Of a stretch of DNA of 44,740 nt, positions 10,829-39,210 are shown piece by piece. The stretch is from Escherichia phage McMelon. Positions within the stretch are counted from its first letter, which is position 1. Each line of letters opens with the position of its first letter. Position numbers and translations under genes: made by a program. The notes beneath the pieces were generated by a model. That model worked only from the letters and a program-made list of their open reading frames with translations. It had not been told where the DNA came from and searched no databases. The DNA lies in the sequence record OR896838.1. One strand, given 5' to 3'.

Positions 10829-11140
10829 TGAAGCGGGACGTCCCGCTTTGTCCCGCCCTGTAAAACCGCATATCTAATCACTTTCATTGCATAAACTCAA
10901 AGCGGGACAGGCGGGACGTCCCGTTTTGTCCCACCCATGAAATGTGCATACCTATTCGAATTTCGTGCATAAAACAAGCGGGACAGAAAGCGGGACAGAC
11001 AAGGGGCGGGACAAAGCGGGACAGCACCCCGTCCCCGCCAGTGCTGCCGCGGTTTTCAGCCGATCGGGACAAGCGGGACAAAGCCCAGTCTTTCAGACTA
11101 GACGGGGGTCAACGGCCCCCCTCGTCTGAGACTGAATAAG
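10829..11140. repeat. GCGGGACA iteron / palindrome array ending in GC-rich hairpin (copy A)
   Basis: At least 10 copies of GCGGGAC or its complement, including perfect palindrome GCGGGACGTCCCGC (10833..10846); terminal hairpin GACGGGGGTCAACGGCCCCCCTCGTC; about 150 bp nearly identical to 39030..39210. Confidence 0.7.
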
Positions 11141-29861: not shown

Positions 29862-32153
29862 TTACTTCCTGTACCGGTACATGATGTCGCCTTCGGCGGC
29901 AAGTGGGAAACCTTTCGCCCATATAGGCAGGTCGCACATCAGCGCGCAAAGCTCATCGGTCGTGTAGTCGTCGGTGTCTGGCACTTCGGTGATCAATTCA
30001 TCGTGCACTGACAGGACGATTTCATAGCCCGCAGCCTCAACGCCAGGCATGGACCATGCGAGAATATCGCGGCACAACGCCTGTACGATGTTCTCCGTAA
30101 GTTTGCCGCCGTAGGTGTACTGGAATCCCCACTGGCGCGTCGTCTGATTCTCGCCCTGGTATTTGATGCGGGTGCTGGTGCGCTTCTTGCCGGTGTCTTC
30201 GTCGATCTCGGTAGTGACAGACAGCGCGATGCCGGGGTAGCTCATGATGCGCCCTGACGGCAACTCAACCTTCAGCCACCGGCCCGCCGCGTTCGGGTCG
30301 TCGCGCTCATCGTCGAATGTCGGGTCGTGCTTCGCCTTCGTGCGAACAATTTTGAGCGCTTTCTTGCCATCAGGGCGAACGTTCGCGCCAGCCCAGTATG
30401 CCTTACCCGGATTACGGATCGCACATAACACCGCTTCCTCAAGCTCGGCCCAAAAGGCTACGGTCTTCGGGTGAGACTCACGCCACATACGTTTGATCGC
30501 GTCGCATGTCAACCACACGTTTTTAGGCAGTATGTAGGTTGGGCGCTCGTCTTTCTTGCCAGGCTTCGGCGGGCGCTTCGCTTCGTTGATGCGGGCAAAC
30601 TCATAACCGCGTTTAGCCGCCGCCCAAATGTGATCCGGGAATGTCCCCTTCATGACGTCCGCCATTGCGTACAGGTCGAGGCCCAGGTTTTTAGCGAACT
30701 GCAAGAACGCCGCGACGCCGCCACCATAGCCCAGCCCCAATTCGCACGCCTTACCGATCTGGCGCAAGTCTTTGCGGTTGGCTTTAATGTAGTCCGGGTC
30801 AAGGCCAAACATCTTACCGGCAGTCTCACAATAGATATCGCGACCGGCCTTAAACACCATTAGCGCGGTTTTCTCGCCTGCGATCCAGGCAAGTCCACGC
30901 CCTTCCACGTTGGAGTAGTCCGCTACGACAAACTTCTTGCCCTTAGCCGGGATAATGCACCCGCGAACGGTCGAGGCTGTTAGCTTAGATATGTCATACG
31001 CCCAGTGCGCGGTCCCGCGTAACAGGGAATTGATGCCGTTGGTGAGCATGTGCGACCGGACCCAAAAAGCAACGTCGCTCTCGCCTTCGCGGCGCTTAAT
31101 CTTCCCTTCGTGATCGTCGCTATACTCGCCGCGTGCCAGGTTTTGAGGCTGGAAGCCTTTACCCGCCCAGCGCAGCGTGCGCTTTGCGCCACCATACTGA
31201 AGACACCCACGGCGGCGACCGTCAGCAGACAGGCCATTAACGAGCGGATTGTACTTAGTCGATGCCGTTGATGACGCACCGAGGCGCATTTCGATAAGCG
31301 CTTTGCCTTCGTCGGGGAAGTCCGGGTCTTCAAGCAGGTCGTTAAGTGTGGATTTCTGCGCGTTGTGGATCGTGAACGCCGGGGCGATATCACGCAGGAT
31401 TGGCAGGAAGTCATTGCCGGTCAGCTTACCGCCAAATCGCTCCCAGGCTTCCTCCTTCAATTCTTCCTTATGCGCCTGCACCGCTTTGATCGCGGCGTTC
31501 GCCAGGTCAACGTCCACATAGAAGCCGCGGTCGTTGATCAACTGGTCAATAAGCAGTATCTCGTCTTCCTTCGGAGTATTACCCCAGTCCGGTATGCGCC
31601 AGTAGACCTCACGCATCGCGATAATATCCAGCGCTGCATATCGCAGAAATTTGGCCCATTCTTCAGGGTGAGTCTCGCGCGTGTAGCGGCGTATTTTGTA
31701 GGTCTTAGGGGTAGGCTTACAGAATCGTTTGATCAGCGCCTTGCCTGCCTTATCCTTCGCGTGCTCTGCGTCAACGCCCAACACCTGACACTGCATATCG
31801 AGGCTACCCGGCAGCGCGTGGCGAAAGGCCATAATCATTGTGTCTTCGATCTGGCTTACCGGCAGGTCAATACCCCACTTCTCGCGGATAACCAGGCGGT
31901 CAAACAGGAGGCCGTTAGCCATCACTATTTTTGCTTTCTTGCGGGAAACATGGCGGAGCGCCTTGCGCAGTTCACGCGGCATTGTGGGGGATTCAGTGCA
32001 ATCCCATGTCTGCACGCGGCCCTCGTCGATGGCGTATGTGCAAATCATAATCTCGGTGGTTGGGTGCTCTGCGTAGGCGTACGCCCCAACCTTCTTTAGG
32101 TCCACCCCGCTAAATGTCTCGGTGTCGAGAAACAGACGTTCGAAGTCTTTCAT
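29862..32153 (-). CDS. DNA polymerase I (family A) with N-terminal 3'-5' exonuclease domain
   Basis: 763 aa; N-terminal exo motif LFLDTETF; polymerase motif C VHDELITEV. Confidence 0.9.
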   Translation of the reverse strand: MKDFERLFLDTETFSGVDLKKVGAYAYAEHPTTEIMICTYAIDEGRVQTWDCTESPTMPRELRKALRHVSRKKAKIVMANGLLFDRLVIREKWGIDLPVSQIEDTMIMAFRHALPGSLDMQCQVLGVDAEHAKDKAGKALIKRFCKPTPKTYKIRRYTRETHPEEWAKFLRYAALDIIAMREVYWRIPDWGNTPKEDEILLIDQLINDRGFYVDVDLANAAIKAVQAHKEELKEEAWERFGGKLTGNDFLPILRDIAPAFTIHNAQKSTLNDLLEDPDFPDEGKALIEMRLGASSTASTKYNPLVNGLSADGRRRGCLQYGGAKRTLRWAGKGFQPQNLARGEYSDDHEGKIKRREGESDVAFWVRSHMLTNGINSLLRGTAHWAYDISKLTASTVRGCIIPAKGKKFVVADYSNVEGRGLAWIAGEKTALMVFKAGRDIYCETAGKMFGLDPDYIKANRKDLRQIGKACELGLGYGGGVAAFLQFAKNLGLDLYAMADVMKGTFPDHIWAAAKRGYEFARINEAKRPPKPGKKDERPTYILPKNVWLTCDAIKRMWRESHPKTVAFWAELEEAVLCAIRNPGKAYWAGANVRPDGKKALKIVRTKAKHDPTFDDERDDPNAAGRWLKVELPSGRIMSYPGIALSVTTEIDEDTGKKRTSTRIKYQGENQTTRQWGFQYTYGGKLTENIVQALCRDILAWSMPGVEAAGYEIVLSVHDELITEVPDTDDYTTDELCALMCDLPIWAKGFPLAAEGDIMYRYRK

Positions 32154-32320
32154 TGCTTTATCCTCACTACGGCGTCAGCGCTGCCGATCATGGAGAAGAT
32201 GCCGTCTGACAGGGCAATCTCTTCGCCGTTGTTGCGAATCTCGGCAACTGTGAAATATTCCCCCAGTAGCTTAGACCATACCCGCATTCCGACTTTTACT
32301 TCGCTGGCTTTAATACGCAT
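32150..32320 (-). CDS. small hypothetical protein
   Basis: 56 aa ORF not in the track (below 60 aa); its TGA overlaps the polymerase ATG (ATGA), suggesting translational coupling. Confidence 0.35.
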   Translation of the reverse strand: MRIKASEVKVGMRVWSKLLGEYFTVAEIRNNGEEIALSDGIFSMIGSADAVVRIKQ

Positions 32321-32329
32321 TTTTCATTG

Positions 32330-32362
32330 TCCTATTAAAAAGCCCGCATTAAGCGGGCTTGA
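32330..32362 (-). terminator. putative terminator after SSB-like gene
   Basis: AAGCCCGC-ttaat-GCGGGCTT hairpin followed on the minus strand by TTTAATAGG. Confidence 0.5.
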
Positions 32363-32378
32363 ATAGTGGGCTTTGCCC

Positions 32379-33158
32379 TTAACGGCGGCGACGTTTACGT
32401 GGCGCTTCGTCTTCGTCGTCGTCCTCATCTTCGTCATCGCGTGGCTTACGACGTTTGCGAGGTTTTTCATCTTCCTCATCGTCGTCGTCATCGCGGCGCT
32501 TGGATTTCTTGGACTTGCGCGGCTTGTCATCTTCATCATCGTCATCACGACGTTTTGACTTTTTGGACTTGCGCGGTGCTTCGTCTTCGTCGTTGTCCAG
32601 GTCTTCATCGGAGCAAGACGACCCGCCACCTCCGAAAGCTTCGCCGTCTTCACGGAATCGCAGACCCAGCAAGCCAGCCCCGAGACCCTTGCCGTTGGTA
32701 TTGTTCCACGCCCAAATATCCAGGGACACATTGCAATAACAACCGGAGTAGATCTCCTGGCCTTCGATCTCGTCGCCTTCTACGGTCAGACCTTGTTCCG
32801 TCTGCTTCTCTCCGAGTGACGTTTGAATGATCGGCTGTTTGAACGATTTGGCGTTGATGTACAACATGCCTTCGAATTCTTCGGTTACTTCGTCGCGCTC
32901 GTCACCGTCGCGAACTGCGCATTCCTTAGAATCCTGGGCGTAGTGGCGGTCCATCCACTTATCGGCATTCTTCTCGGATTTCAGCTTATCGGTGAGCACT
33001 GCGCGCGCTGCCGCTTCCACTTTGTCCACCTGCGGATCTTCTTTATCCAGAAGAATAACGGCACGGTATGCCGGTTTTTGACCATCCTGTTTAGGGGTAT
33101 CACGTTCCCAAATTTTAAGGAAGCATACGCGCACATTTTTCAGGTTGACTTTAGCCAT
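32379..33158 (-). CDS. single-stranded DNA-binding protein (T7 gp2.5 / DUF2815-like) with C-terminal acidic/basic repeat tail
   Basis: N-terminus MAKVNLKNVRVCF typical of gp2.5-like SSBs; C-terminus has about 3 tandem repeats of KPRKSKKSKRRDDDD(E/D) encoded by about 60-bp DNA repeats. Confidence 0.55.
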   Translation of the reverse strand: MAKVNLKNVRVCFLKIWERDTPKQDGQKPAYRAVILLDKEDPQVDKVEAAARAVLTDKLKSEKNADKWMDRHYAQDSKECAVRDGDERDEVTEEFEGMLYINAKSFKQPIIQTSLGEKQTEQGLTVEGDEIEGQEIYSGCYCNVSLDIWAWNNTNGKGLGAGLLGLRFREDGEAFGGGGSSCSDEDLDNDEDEAPRKSKKSKRRDDDDEDDKPRKSKKSKRRDDDDDEEDEKPRKRRKPRDDEDEDDDEDEAPRKRRRR

Positions 33159-33248
33159 TTTCCAATTCCTCATTTTCACATGTATCGGGGTTATTGGAGG
33201 CCACCCCGTTCGGCTTGGTTGCCAATTTACTTGGTTGCGCTTAAGCGG

Positions 33249-33491
33249 TCAAGCATTTTCATTAAAAAGATTTCTGGTCACGTAGTTGGTAGCGTTCTCG
33301 ATCCAGCTTAACGGCGGGCGGTCGATGTTCTTCTCCACCCAATCGACGGCAACTTCGCTATAGCCGTCATCCAGCCAGCGGGTCGGATGGCGAATCATCC
33401 ACGCCACCATTAACACGCCTTGCACGCAATGCAGGATAAAGCCCAGCGCTCCGAGCAAAAACATCAATAAGATTGCGAATACTTTATTCAT
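33249..33491 (-). CDS. small membrane protein
   Basis: 80 aa with two hydrophobic helices (ILLMFLLGALGFIL; LMVAWMI). Confidence 0.4.
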   Translation of the reverse strand: MNKVFAILLMFLLGALGFILHCVQGVLMVAWMIRHPTRWLDDGYSEVAVDWVEKNIDRPPLSWIENATNYVTRNLFNENA

Positions 33492-34881
33492 TGCTTAAGT
33501 CCTCGTCAGTAGCTTCCGACCACGCAGGGCGCGGGTCGTCGATTGGTGCTAACACCGGTTTGGCAGGTGCGCGCGTGATTTTATCACACAGCTTCGCCCA
33601 CACTTTCGGTTTTTCGTCCTTCAGTACCTTCTCGGCATCCGTAGGGCTGAGCAATGTTTCTTTGTACATCACATCGCGCTTGATCCGGGCCTTCGTGAAG
33701 ATTTCAATCACTTCGCTTTCGTCTGCCCACTTGCGAATCCCTTTCTTACCGGCAACCATCTTGAGGCCCAGCGATTCGCCATCGCCCGCCATAACCGCTT
33801 TGAATACCGCGGACTCGATAGCCTTGATGTGCTGGCGCATTGCGTCCAGACCCTCATATGCCTTGCGCAGTTCCGCCGCGCTCATAGCGCCTGGTGCCGC
33901 TTTTCTGGCTTCGCGGGCCATATTGCGGTCGTGATTGGCGCATTCTTCCTCTGTCGCAATACTCACGTCGTCTCCCAGGTCTTCGTCTGTTGCCGTTGGT
34001 GGGGTCATCGTGTCGATTGCGGCCTTAGCGCGGGCGCTACACTGATCCGCAAATCTGCACCACTGACACGCATCAACGCTCGGTCGGAAGTCGGCACGGG
34101 TGAGTCCCTTCTTGCCGCGGGCGTACGCTTCCAGGGCGGCGATAGCACGCTTGGACGCAAACTTCGCGAATATCTCCAGCGCTTCCACTGTAATATCCCA
34201 CTCCGACGCCCCGCCGCAATACGGCTGGAAGATAACCAGGCGCACGGTCGTGATGTCGTACATGGATTGCAGCTTGCGCAGCAGGCCGAGCGCGTACAAC
34301 ATAAGCTGTTTGTTTTCTTTCGCCTCGACCTTATGCCGCCCGGTCTTCAGGTCGCCAACAATCAGCATGTACGTGCCGTCGGTCTTTTTCATGACCATGA
34401 CCATATCGGCAGTACCGAACGTTTTAATCCGGTTGCCGTCGATCTCGAAGCCAGAGTGTAGGACGCGGGTGAGATCGGCGCGCATCTCAAGCTGAACAAA
34501 CTCCGCCACTTCGAGGAGCGGTCGCCAGTGGTCTATGTACGCGTCGCACTGTTTCACCATGTCGTCGTTGACCAGTACGCCGCCTTTCGGTGCTTTCGGG
34601 TGCGCCTTTACCGGCCCCTTACCTTCGTTCTCGACGTAGCACCCTTTGTACGTTTTCGCGGTTATAAGCTTCTCACCGGCGATAATGCGGTTGAGCACGA
34701 CTTCCGATACTGTGTGCATACTCGTACCGTTAATAGCCGCTTGCCCGGATTCGTTCGGGATACCCTGTTCTACCACCAGGGCCGCGGGACACCCCATCCA
34801 TTTTTTAGCACCGGATGGCCCGAGTAATGAATGTTCCGTATTACTACCAGATTGTGTTTTGCGCTTCGGTTTAATCGCCAT
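33484..34881 (-). CDS. PD-(D/E)XK nuclease, DUF2800-like (Cas4-like exonuclease)
   Basis: 465 aa; nuclease core GDLKTG; C-terminal Cys cluster CQWCRFADQC; classic partner of DUF2815 SSB and Pol A. Confidence 0.7.
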   Translation of the reverse strand: MAIKPKRKTQSGSNTEHSLLGPSGAKKWMGCPAALVVEQGIPNESGQAAINGTSMHTVSEVVLNRIIAGEKLITAKTYKGCYVENEGKGPVKAHPKAPKGGVLVNDDMVKQCDAYIDHWRPLLEVAEFVQLEMRADLTRVLHSGFEIDGNRIKTFGTADMVMVMKKTDGTYMLIVGDLKTGRHKVEAKENKQLMLYALGLLRKLQSMYDITTVRLVIFQPYCGGASEWDITVEALEIFAKFASKRAIAALEAYARGKKGLTRADFRPSVDACQWCRFADQCSARAKAAIDTMTPPTATDEDLGDDVSIATEEECANHDRNMAREARKAAPGAMSAAELRKAYEGLDAMRQHIKAIESAVFKAVMAGDGESLGLKMVAGKKGIRKWADESEVIEIFTKARIKRDVMYKETLLSPTDAEKVLKDEKPKVWAKLCDKITRAPAKPVLAPIDDPRPAWSEATDEDLSNE

Positions 34882-35369: not shown

Positions 35370-35879
35370 TTAATCTTCCAGTTCGAAATAGGTTTCGACG
35401 ATTTCTTTTAAATCTTTGTGGAAGTCTTCGACGTCGTCGTCTTCCAGCTTGGCGATTGATTTGATCTCGAACGCTTCCAGCAGGTCGTCAAATTCGTCGT
35501 TAGCATCGTCGTCATCGCCACCGGCGATAATCGCGGCGTACTGCTTGATCTCGTCGCGCATCTCTGCCAGCGGATCGGCATCTTTCTTCCCTTTGCCTTT
35601 CGCCGGAGCTTTTTTACCCTTCGCCGGTTTTTCGTCTTCGGCTTCTTCATCGTCGTCATCTTCTACGACTTCTTTTTTGGCCTTACCTTTAGCCGGGGAT
35701 TTTTTAGATTTAGCCGGTTTTTCGTCATCGTCGTCATCTTCGACAACTTCTTTTTTGGCCTTAGACGGCTTCTTATCTTCCTGTTTACCAACGGCAGCGC
35801 CAACGGTTTCATAATGCTTTGCAATGGTTTCCAGTGCTACTACGCCGCGAGTGATCAGGTTTACGATTTGCTCAAACAT
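35370..35879 (-). CDS. highly charged repeat protein (alternating poly-Lys and poly-Asp/Glu blocks)
   Basis: 170 aa from ATG with GGAGA RBS; internal tandem repeats KKEVVEDDDDxEKPAKxKKxPAKGK; the track ORF extends to 36059 but that region looks like a 5' leader. Confidence 0.5.
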   Translation of the reverse strand: MFEQIVNLITRGVVALETIAKHYETVGAAVGKQEDKKPSKAKKEVVEDDDDDEKPAKSKKSPAKGKAKKEVVEDDDDEEAEDEKPAKGKKAPAKGKGKKDADPLAEMRDEIKQYAAIIAGGDDDDANDEFDDLLEAFEIKSIAKLEDDDVEDFHKDLKEIVETYFELED

Positions 35880-39029: not shown

Positions 39030-39210
39030 TTTATTGCATAAAGCAAGCGGGACAAAAAGCGGGACAAACAAGGGGCGGGACAAAGCGGGACAGCACCCCT
39101 GTCCCGCCCCGGATGACGCGGCTTCCAGAGGAGCGGGACAGGCGGGACAACTCCCAGTCTTTCAGACTAGACGGGGGTCAATGGCCCCCCTCGTCTGAGA
39201 CTGAATAAAA
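39030..39210. repeat. GCGGGACA iteron / palindrome array ending in GC-rich hairpin (copy B)
   Basis: Near-identical to 10970..11140: same order of GCGGGACA units, GGCGGGAC...GTCCCGCC inverted repeat and terminal hairpin (loop differs by one base). Confidence 0.7.

Follow-up and report, generated by a model that had tools for sequence, protein, structure and literature searches.

An acidic C-terminal tail, usually with a hydrophobic end, is seen as a defining feature of bacterial and phage SSBs (single-stranded DNA-binding proteins), in which it serves for autoregulation and as a handle for partner recruitment. The acidic tails of T7 gp2.5 and T4 gp32 are thought to shield the DNA-binding cleft. 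Enc34 ORF6 prefers single-stranded DNA (ssDNA), and removal of its tail gives binding to double-stranded DNA (PMC5686142). In gp32, the basic Lys-Arg-Lys-Ser-Thr motif (LAST) contacts the acidic region of the neighboring protomer and thereby produces cooperativity (PMC12893549). The subject here is the SSB gene of Escherichia phage McMelon (sequence record OR896838.1), located in a stretch of 44,740 nucleotides that was analyzed as a whole and is referred to below as the window. In place of a short acidic tail, the encoded protein carries 80 C-terminal residues of alternating basic and acidic blocks that end in RRRR.

The orthologue in phages SECphi4, SECphi6, and SECphi18 has been described as a "predicted SSB (Gp2.5 family)", and its expression triggers Retron-Eco8 (10.1101/2022.08.27.505566). 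The SECphi4 and SECphi18 escapers listed in that study carry T56P, which lies in the OB core, and one SECphi4 escaper has an intergenic mutation upstream of the SSB gene, considered by the authors a promoter mutation (Table S2, 10.1101/2022.08.27.505566). Residues 1-186 were modelled on gp2.5 in the same work, with the flexible C-terminal residues stated as not shown. The C-tail of T7 gp2.5 is dispensable for Retron-Eco8 activation. A later paper, citing earlier work, states that the SECphi4 orthologue binds Retron-Eco8 msdDNA. The papers using this orthologue ignore the tail, and literature searches on DUF2815 tails and polyampholyte SSBs turned up nothing in which a tail of this kind is described or tested.

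Identity of the SSB and anatomy of its tail

The SSB protein matches PF10991 (Enc34_ssDNA-bd, formerly DUF2815) with a score of 108.9 bits, the cut-off being 26 (E=3e-31, residues 10-198 of a 266-amino-acid open reading frame (ORF)) and phrog_112, annotated as "Gp2.5-like ssDNA binding and annealing protein" (E=7e-57). No match for it was found in NCBIfam. The sequence alone reaches 4KLK, 4JG2, and Enc34 ORF6 (5ODJ, 5ODK) at E values of about 1e-11 to 1e-7. An AlphaFold2 model built on 104 homologues has predicted local distance difference test (pLDDT) values of 93-98 across residues 1-170, and the N-terminal domain models as an OB fold. With this model, Foldseek recovered 5odl_A (Enc34 ORF6 with ssDNA; E=1.4e-12, TM 0.77), 4klk, and 4jg2, together with T7 gp2.5 (1je5) at an E value of about 1e-6. 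In the HMMER alignment, Enc34 Trp150 pairs with the first Trp of a DIWAW motif and Enc34 Tyr156 pairs with an Asn; the second Trp of the motif is two residues past the first.

Because sequence, fold, and gene context agree, the protein is placed among the gp2.5-type members of PF10991. Judged from the database matches and the predicted structure, it is an OB-fold SSB of the T7 gp2.5/Enc34 ORF6 type and a replication/recombination protein of Dhillonvirus. An earlier reading made without database searches (the sequence-only reading) had already called it a gp2.5/DUF2815-like OB-fold SSB, a call that the Pfam, PHROG, PDB, AlphaFold2, and Foldseek results bear out. The identity of the protein and the anatomy of its tail, as described here, are regarded as nearly certain.

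The tail spans residues 180-259 (32382..32621) and is composed of SSCSDEDLDNDEDE / APRKSKKSKRRDDDDEDD / KPRKSKKSKRRDDDDDEEDE / KPRKRRKPRDDEDEDDDEDE / APRKRRRR. Its parts are listed in Table 1. The proximal patch SSCSDEDLDNDEDE occupies the position at which the classic acidic tail starts (family consensus ..DDFDD..). The 80 residues include 24 D and 11 E, 15 R and 13 K, and also 7 S and 5 P. The 28 K/R fall into four basic blocks and the 35 D/E into about five acidic ones. Charged residues make up a fraction of 0.79 of the tail, for a net charge of -7. Charge segregation, expressed as kappa, is 0.54 and exceeds the values of 200 shuffles (0.105 +/- 0.043, maximum 0.28). The peak charge density per 30 residues is 0.93 in the SSB, and 0.67 in the next-highest ORF of the window.

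All 80 residues of the tail are predicted to be disordered. The AlphaFold2 pLDDT is 50-70, and DSSP assigns only one 4-residue helix, at residues 184-187 (DEDL). A single alpha-helix (SAH) domain was considered and rejected, as DSSP places no helix in residues 188-259 and the acidic residues are mostly Asp. The tail is unlike a SAH domain because it is Asp-rich and because a Pro opens every basic block. A repetitive mixed-charge tail of about three repeats ending in PRKRRRR had been described by the sequence-only reading, and this description agrees with the anatomy given here. Its length of about 70 residues is close to the 66 counted from the first APRK but falls short of the 80 of the whole tail.

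Conservation, variation, and spread of the tail

Twenty-four intact Dhillonvirus SSB alleles were assembled from IMG/VR loci and GenBank records. The mixed-charge tail is present in all 24. PRKRRRR is invariant among them, and the residue before it is A in 23 alleles and K in SECphi4. The number of basic blocks ranges from one to four. A single block is found in phage welsh, whereas EP23 and clusters P0003 and P0004 have two. Three blocks are present in HK578, EK99P-1, SECphi4, BF9, and others, and four in this phage and most records. The indels that separate these alleles remove whole modules, all in frame, and always retain the acidic patch and the Arg tip. The SSB of welsh is 202 amino acids long and ends ...DEDLDNDDEDEAPRKRRRR; its assembly looks sound because the other repetitive gene of this phage is intact. 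In a spread sample of the 154 phage records that match the gene, SSB gene spans are mostly near 798-816 nucleotides; a smaller group measures 732-756, and single records have 696 and near 610. The locus had been expected to be prone to length variation, and the comparison of repeat number among related phages finds differences of whole modules.

Nei-Gojobori estimates over the 24 alleles give a ratio of nonsynonymous to synonymous differences (pN/pS) of 0.112 for the tail, at a pS of 0.36, and of 0.061 for the core, at a pS of about 0.29. The low ratio indicates that the tail is translated in the SSB frame and that purifying selection constrains its residues.

At the DNA level, Tandem Repeats Finder (TRF) reports a single array in the SSB tail (32471..32588) with a period of 54, 2.2 copies, 73% matches, and a score of 131. 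The repeat period over the tail is 54-60 nucleotides. Units 1 and 2 share 74% of their nucleotides; 14 of the 18 codons encode the same amino acid, 8 of these 14 by different synonymous codons. Unit 3, at 52-57% identity, and unit 4, at 33%, are less like the others. The repeat is therefore read as old and maintained at the protein level, given the residues that units 1 and 2 share despite synonymous divergence and the 33-57% identity of the other pairs. The sequence-only reading had given tandem DNA repeats of about 60 bp. This period is roughly right, but the repeat is weak in the DNA and is clearer in the protein.

Variation of this kind could be explained by neutral low-complexity expansion, in which slippage or unequal recombination within a GA-rich acidic tail produces repeats that are tolerated and do nothing specific. 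Copy number differs among otherwise near-identical phages, a one-block allele exists, and whole-unit length changes (54 nucleotides, for example) are seen across the sampled records, all of which this explanation would account for. Against it stand the low pN/pS at high pS, unit peptides kept through synonymous divergence, and an alternating architecture and charge balance that are conserved down to about 25% core identity. Every intact allele is also in frame with both tail ends kept. Because of the selection data in particular, neutral expansion is considered decidedly unlikely.

A second frame is open over the tail. The ORF at 32324..32731 on the minus strand has 135 codons and continues past the SSB stop and the hairpin that follows it. 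Two database entries, P0005 (QZI78420.1, vB_EcoS-22664B1, 269 amino acids; L023, MZ234008.1 396..1205) and P0008, switch into this frame, and both end ...KGKAHYSSPL(N/I)AGFL(I/L)GQ. Module 1 also contains an in-frame AAA-AAG site. These observations would fit a tail that is an artefact, whether of a wrong frame, of misassembled repeats, or of an alternative-frame or frameshifted product. Against this, 154 phage records match the gene, the 24 intact alleles all use one frame, selection acts codon-wise in the SSB frame, and the P0005 and P0008 breaks are at different sites. A real alternative-frame product was rejected on the last two grounds. A programmed -1 frameshift at AAA-AAG was likewise rejected, as the site is missing from 6 of the 24 intact-frame alleles (L001, L006, L009, SECphi4, Psq-1, and welsh). 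That the tail is an artefact is almost inconceivable. The P0005 and P0008 entries, as database records of the SSB gene, are most likely frameshifted by sequencing or annotation errors and not real products.

A word-seeded homologue search gave about 117 protein clusters, whose tails have 1-9 basic blocks over 28-166 amino acids, down to about 25% identity. Such a search favors similar low-complexity tails, so it was not used for frequencies, which were taken from a HMMER search with the OB domain only. Among 1.84 billion representatives, the OB-only search gave 148 matches with a complete domain end. The tail is classic in 133 of the 148 (90%), with a median of 23 amino acids, 0 K/R, 9 D/E, and mostly a hydrophobic last residue. 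The other 15 are mixed-charge, as is every one of the six nearest representatives whose C-terminus is intact. On a neighbor-joining tree of the OB domains, tail type clusters strongly, with 17 changes by parsimony compared with about 88 after permutation. Because the nearest relatives are all mixed-charge, the tail is, on this sequence evidence, a hallmark of a clade and not a one-off.

The GenBank phages with this OB domain comprise 676 records, mostly Dhillonvirus and Guernseyvirinae. Jersey and K1G, read as representatives of Jerseyvirus/Kagunavirus, have the acidic patch and the Arg tip only. They contain one block, end ...DDLEDDEEDEAPRRERRRR, and carry the tip APRRERRRR. Among the other representatives, the tail has three blocks in Smarc3, has two in phiEap-2, and is classic acidic in Xfas53. 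The tail had been called atypical, and it does differ from those of Enc34 ORF6, T7 gp2.5, and 133 of the 148 OB-only representatives; the short acidic tail with an acidic/hydrophobic end, a common PF10991 feature, is absent from this SSB. The implication that it is an oddity of one phage does not hold, as the 24 Dhillonvirus alleles, Jersey, K1G, and about 117 clusters share the tail type. In homologues, the tail does not take the form of a conserved non-repetitive domain.

In mixed tails, basic residues rise in number with the acidic ones (r=0.95, slope 0.73). The median net charge is -9 for mixed tails and -8 for the 133 classic tails, though mixed tails are three times longer. The net charge of the tail described here (about -7 to -9) is in line with that of classic acidic SSB tails.

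Possible functions of the tail

The tail may act as an electrostatic autoinhibition switch combined with a cooperativity module, an account that is favored here only tentatively. In the free protein, the acidic blocks would pair with the protein's own basic blocks and shield the DNA-binding cleft. Upon binding of ssDNA the tail would be displaced or opened, and the basic blocks and Arg tip would then contact DNA as well as the acidic blocks or acidic core of neighboring protomers, in a manner comparable to the gp32 LAST motif. As a result, coating would be cooperative, strands would anneal more easily, and replisome partners would be recruited multivalently. How strong these effects are would be tuned by module number, which would change when the repeated units recombine. 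In composition, the basic blocks PRKSKKSKRR are LAST-like ((K/R)3(S/T)2). The tail retains the net negative charge of classic tails and the proximal acidic patch, to which K/R/S/P blocks and an Arg end are added.

Several observations weigh against this account. The sequence charge decoration of the tail, which describes long-range patterning, does not differ from that of shuffles (z=-0.84), unlike kappa, which is a local measure and captures blockiness. The OB core has a median net charge of -4 in mixed-tail proteins versus +2 in classic ones (p=5e-31, uncorrected), but the difference appears in only 7 of 12 sister-clade contrasts (Wilcoxon p=0.07). Because the effect fades in these contrasts, the acidic cores of mixed-tail proteins are a hint only, and co-variation between tail type and core net charge, although strong in the raw data, was rejected as not robust. 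Phage welsh is viable with one block, so that at least one isolate forms plaques without the internal modules, and Jersey and K1G are without internal modules. Given their absence from these three phages, any role of the repeats in cooperativity would be modulatory and not essential. Finally, the Retron-Eco8 escape mutations are in the OB core and the upstream intergenic region, with none in the tail, and the T7 C-tail is unneeded for activation. The Retron-Eco8 phenotype, the one known for the orthologue, is for these reasons silent on the tail.

The same data bear on an anti-defense role, in which the mixed-charge tail would counter host nucleases as a decoy or mimic of DNA or would mask the SSB from SSB-sensing immunity. 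Retron-Eco8, Hachiman, and other systems sense phage SSBs, with the SECphi4 orthologue as one trigger, and acidic runs can mimic DNA. The orthologue is nevertheless still sensed by Retron-Eco8, and escape occurs through the OB core (T56P) and the intergenic region upstream. The T7 tail is irrelevant to activation, and the basic blocks argue against simple DNA mimicry. An anti-defense role is therefore very improbable.

A basic tip is present in 68 of the 127 mixed tails and in none of the 133 classic tails. Another 32 mixed tails have an acidic/hydrophobic tip, DDEIPF included, after many modules, so that modules and tip are separable. The distant homologues P0105 and P0112 carry DDEIPF or DDDDIPF at the C-terminus, in essence the tip of E. 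coli SSB; in these lineages the charge modules would be a linker before a host-like partner-binding peptide. In the lineage of this phage the canonical tip is gone, and its loss in favor of the Arg-rich end is the most distinctive feature, with the repeat expansion second.

The main alternative to the autoinhibition switch is based on these tips. The Arg-rich end APRKRRRR, perhaps with the acidic patch, would be a charge-reversed docking tip, and the modules would be a length-variable spacer. Candidate partners are the DNA polymerase, the helicase-primase, the Cas4-like exonuclease, the phrog_3127 protein described below, or a host factor. The tip and the acidic patch are the sole tail parts found in every allele, with PRKRRRR identical, while the internal modules come and go, and they are the only parts found in Jersey and K1G. 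The distribution of basic tips between mixed and classic tails, and the retention of an acidic/hydrophobic tip by distant relatives, also suit a docking tip. The internal modules, however, are under purifying selection (pN/pS 0.11) and elsewhere number up to 9 with tightly balanced charge, neither of which resembles an inert spacer. This alternative is a real possibility but is on the unlikely side.

The charge blocks could also drive multivalent self-association, such that the SSB and ssDNA form a liquid-like replication/recombination compartment. A high kappa, a charged fraction of 0.79, and predicted disorder are consistent with such a scaffold. The model would be E. coli SSB, which condenses through its linker, or the charge-block C-terminal domain (CTD) of Caulobacter RNase E. 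E. coli SSB phase-separates (10.1101/797431), and the RNase E CTD is a condensate precedent (10.1101/272286). A second block-polyampholyte protein, matching phrog_3127, is encoded in the same replication module (35370..35879). The blocks of the SSB tail are short (6-11 residues) and few (1-4), however, and one-block alleles are viable. A condensate scaffold is thus judged unlikely. The more specific proposal, that the Arg-tipped tail and the phrog_3127 protein assemble an electrostatic liquid-like compartment on ssDNA that is tuned by module copy number, is doubtful to the same degree. If it were true, the "universal" acidic/hydrophobic SSB tip would have been dropped by a large group of often-isolated siphophages of enterobacteria, comprising Dhillonvirus, Jerseyvirus, Kagunavirus, and relatives.

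The phrog_3127 protein has no Pfam match. It is composed of an N-terminal helix, three histone-H1-like basic K/P/A blocks (KKPSKAKK, KPAKSKKSPAKGKAKK, and KPAKGKKAPAKGKGKK) alternating with acidic EVVEDDDD blocks, and a conserved acidic helical domain at the C-terminus. Homologues in Jersey, K1G, phiEap-2, and Smarc3 contain one or two blocks of the "EEKPKRKPRK" type, which are like SSB module 3 (EKPRKRRKPR). Module number is polymorphic in Dhillonvirus: the protein has 142-179 amino acids in the loci read, and its tblastn spans measure 426-627 nucleotides. Matches in tblastn with the phrog_3127 protein were confined to Dhillonvirus, and the wider distribution rests on synteny and five translated homologues. 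Co-variation in block number between the SSB and the phrog_3127 protein within Dhillonvirus was examined and rejected (welsh, 1 versus 3; L009, 4 versus 2). A trend across genera is apparent from only five phages.

The tail type is descriptive so far, but it is widespread and constrained. A clade of gp2.5-type SSBs has swapped the acidic handle for an Arg-rich end and inserted balanced basic and acidic modules. This clade includes phages used in defense research (SECphi4, SECphi18, and the BASEL Dhillonviruses) and, judging from the representatives read, Jersey-like Salmonella phages, to which several hundred matching records belong. The finding bears on how SSB-sensing immune systems see such proteins. 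Because natural alleles with 1-4 modules exist, existing isolates allow a direct measurement of how module number affects DNA binding, cooperativity, annealing, condensation, and fitness.

The locus and its comparison with known systems

The 1-kb stretch around the SSB gene is 99.6% identical to Escherichia phage JLBYU60, and the 154 phage records that match it are nearly all Dhillonvirus siphophages of E. coli. The features of the locus are listed in Table 1.

Table 1. Positions of the SSB gene, the parts of its product, and nearby features in the window.
Feature	Residues	Position	Strand	Remarks
SSB gene		32379..33158	minus	259 amino acids and stop; TAA at 32379..32381
OB-fold ssDNA-binding core	1-175	32634..33158	minus	AlphaFold2, Foldseek, sequence matches to PDB
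GGGG hinge	176-179	32622..32633	minus	G-rich in homologues; family consensus ...DGEAFGGG...
Proximal acidic patch SSCSDEDLDNDEDE	180-193	32580..32621	minus	In every intact allele, minor substitutions only
Module 1, APRKSKKSKRR + DDDDEDD	194-211	32526..32579	minus	54 nucleotides; forms the TRF array with module 2
Module 2, KPRKSKKSKRR + DDDDDEEDE	212-231	32466..32525	minus	60 nucleotides; missing in three-block HK578 and EK99P-1
Module 3, KPRKRRKPR + DDEDEDDDEDE	232-251	32406..32465	minus	60 nucleotides; missing in SECphi4, BF9, and LM40P1
Terminal basic block APRKRRRR	252-259	32382..32405	minus	Arg-rich C-terminal tip
Shine-Dalgarno sequence GAGGA		33167..33171	minus	8 nucleotides before the SSB ATG; sequence read directly
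Sigma-70-like promoter of the SSB gene, TTGACC-17 nt-TAAATT		33224..33252	minus	Consensus scan and sequence read
GC-rich hairpin and T run		32338..32362	minus	Right after the SSB stop; AAGCCCGC-TTAAT-GCGGGCTT then TTT, read directly
DUF2800/Cas4-like PD-(D/E)XK exonuclease gene		33484..34881		One neighbor of the SSB gene; Pfam
56-amino-acid gene, phrog_10102		32150..32320	minus	Between SSB and DNA polymerase, just downstream of SSB
DNA_pol_A (family-A DNA polymerase) gene		29862..32153		Beyond the 56-amino-acid gene from SSB; Pfam
phrog_3127 protein		35370..35879	minus	169 amino acids from an internal ATG; same replication module

In the ORF list, the SSB occupies 32379..33179 of the minus strand and starts at the GTG at 33179, which gives a product of 266 amino acids beginning MKMRNWK. 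On sequence grounds, the true start is the ATG at 33158, which gives a protein of 259 amino acids. The same MAKVNL start is used in the coding sequence annotation of SECphi4 and of four other records; in three related ones the annotated start is five codons further upstream. The 266-amino-acid form was rejected as an ORF-calling artefact because the Shine-Dalgarno sequence falls within its 7 extra codons (33159..33179). The hairpin after the stop is a probable intrinsic terminator, although a terminator pattern scan did not report it. A "terminator" feature is annotated somewhere under the 1001-nucleotide match in LR999870.1.

The helicase-primase gene is further upstream of the SSB gene, with divergent transcription. 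The order exonuclease-SSB-polymerase is also found in Jersey, K1G, phiEap-2, Smarc3, and Xfas53. The 56-amino-acid gene is listed as mutated in defense-escaping SECphi4, SECphi6, and SECphi18 (Table S2, 10.1101/2022.08.27.505566); the mutations, selected at 37 C, are an E21 frameshift and intergenic changes upstream.

Elsewhere in the window, the 10-nucleotide motif AAGCGGGACA has 14 copies with at most one mismatch, compared with 3.0 +/- 1.7 expected. Most are in two arrays (10831..11080 and 39045..39149), one of which is inside a 78-bp tandem repeat of two copies. These arrays may be iterated sites at which a protein binds, for regulation or as part of an origin. Two records with other host names carry a Dhillonvirus SSB gene, "Campylobacter phage A144" (H64, MG065648.1) with 94.7% DNA identity and "Acinetobacter phage NJ01" (H103, OQ221563.1) with 99.4% over the OB-domain protein. 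Mislabeled hosts or contamination of the records may explain this.

Several known systems can be compared with the SSB tail. The CTD of Caulobacter RNase E and Ddx4 likewise present disordered regions in which positively and negatively charged blocks alternate on a nucleic-acid-binding protein. Their blocks are 10-30 residues long within several hundred residues, whereas those of the SSB are 6-11 residues long within 80. E. coli SSB has the same arrangement of OB core, disordered linker, and terminal interaction peptide, and its linker modulates cooperativity and condensation. That linker is G/Q/P-rich and nearly uncharged, however, and its tip is DDDIPF, while the tip here is basic. T4 gp32 is an SSB that pairs a basic K/R/S/T segment, for neighbor contacts and cooperativity, with an acidic segment, for autoinhibition and partners. 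It has an unrelated zinc-containing fold, and its charged elements are at opposite ends of the protein instead of interleaved in one tail.

T7 gp2.5 (1JE5) shares the OB-fold topology, is an SSB/annealing protein encoded next to an exonuclease and a family-A polymerase, and, like the SECphi4 orthologue, triggers Retron-Eco8. Identity is about 12-14%. The acidic tail of gp2.5 has an essential C-terminal Phe that docks on the polymerase and helicase, whereas the SSB described here is without an acidic/aromatic tip. Enc34 ORF6 (5ODJ, 5ODK, 5ODL), the type member of PF10991, has the same fold, an ssDNA-stacking Trp that aligns with a Trp here, and a disordered C-terminal segment that opens with an acidic patch, and it also belongs to a phage replication module. 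Its tail is short and purely acidic (16 of the last 29 residues are D/E) and ends ...DEDEV, compared with 80 residues, 28 of them basic, and a final RRRR here; its second stacking residue, Tyr156, aligns with an Asn of this SSB. The SSB of SECphi4 and SECphi18 (QJI52528.1) is from the same genus and has a near-identical core. SECphi18 has the same four-block tail, and SECphi4 differs in having three blocks.

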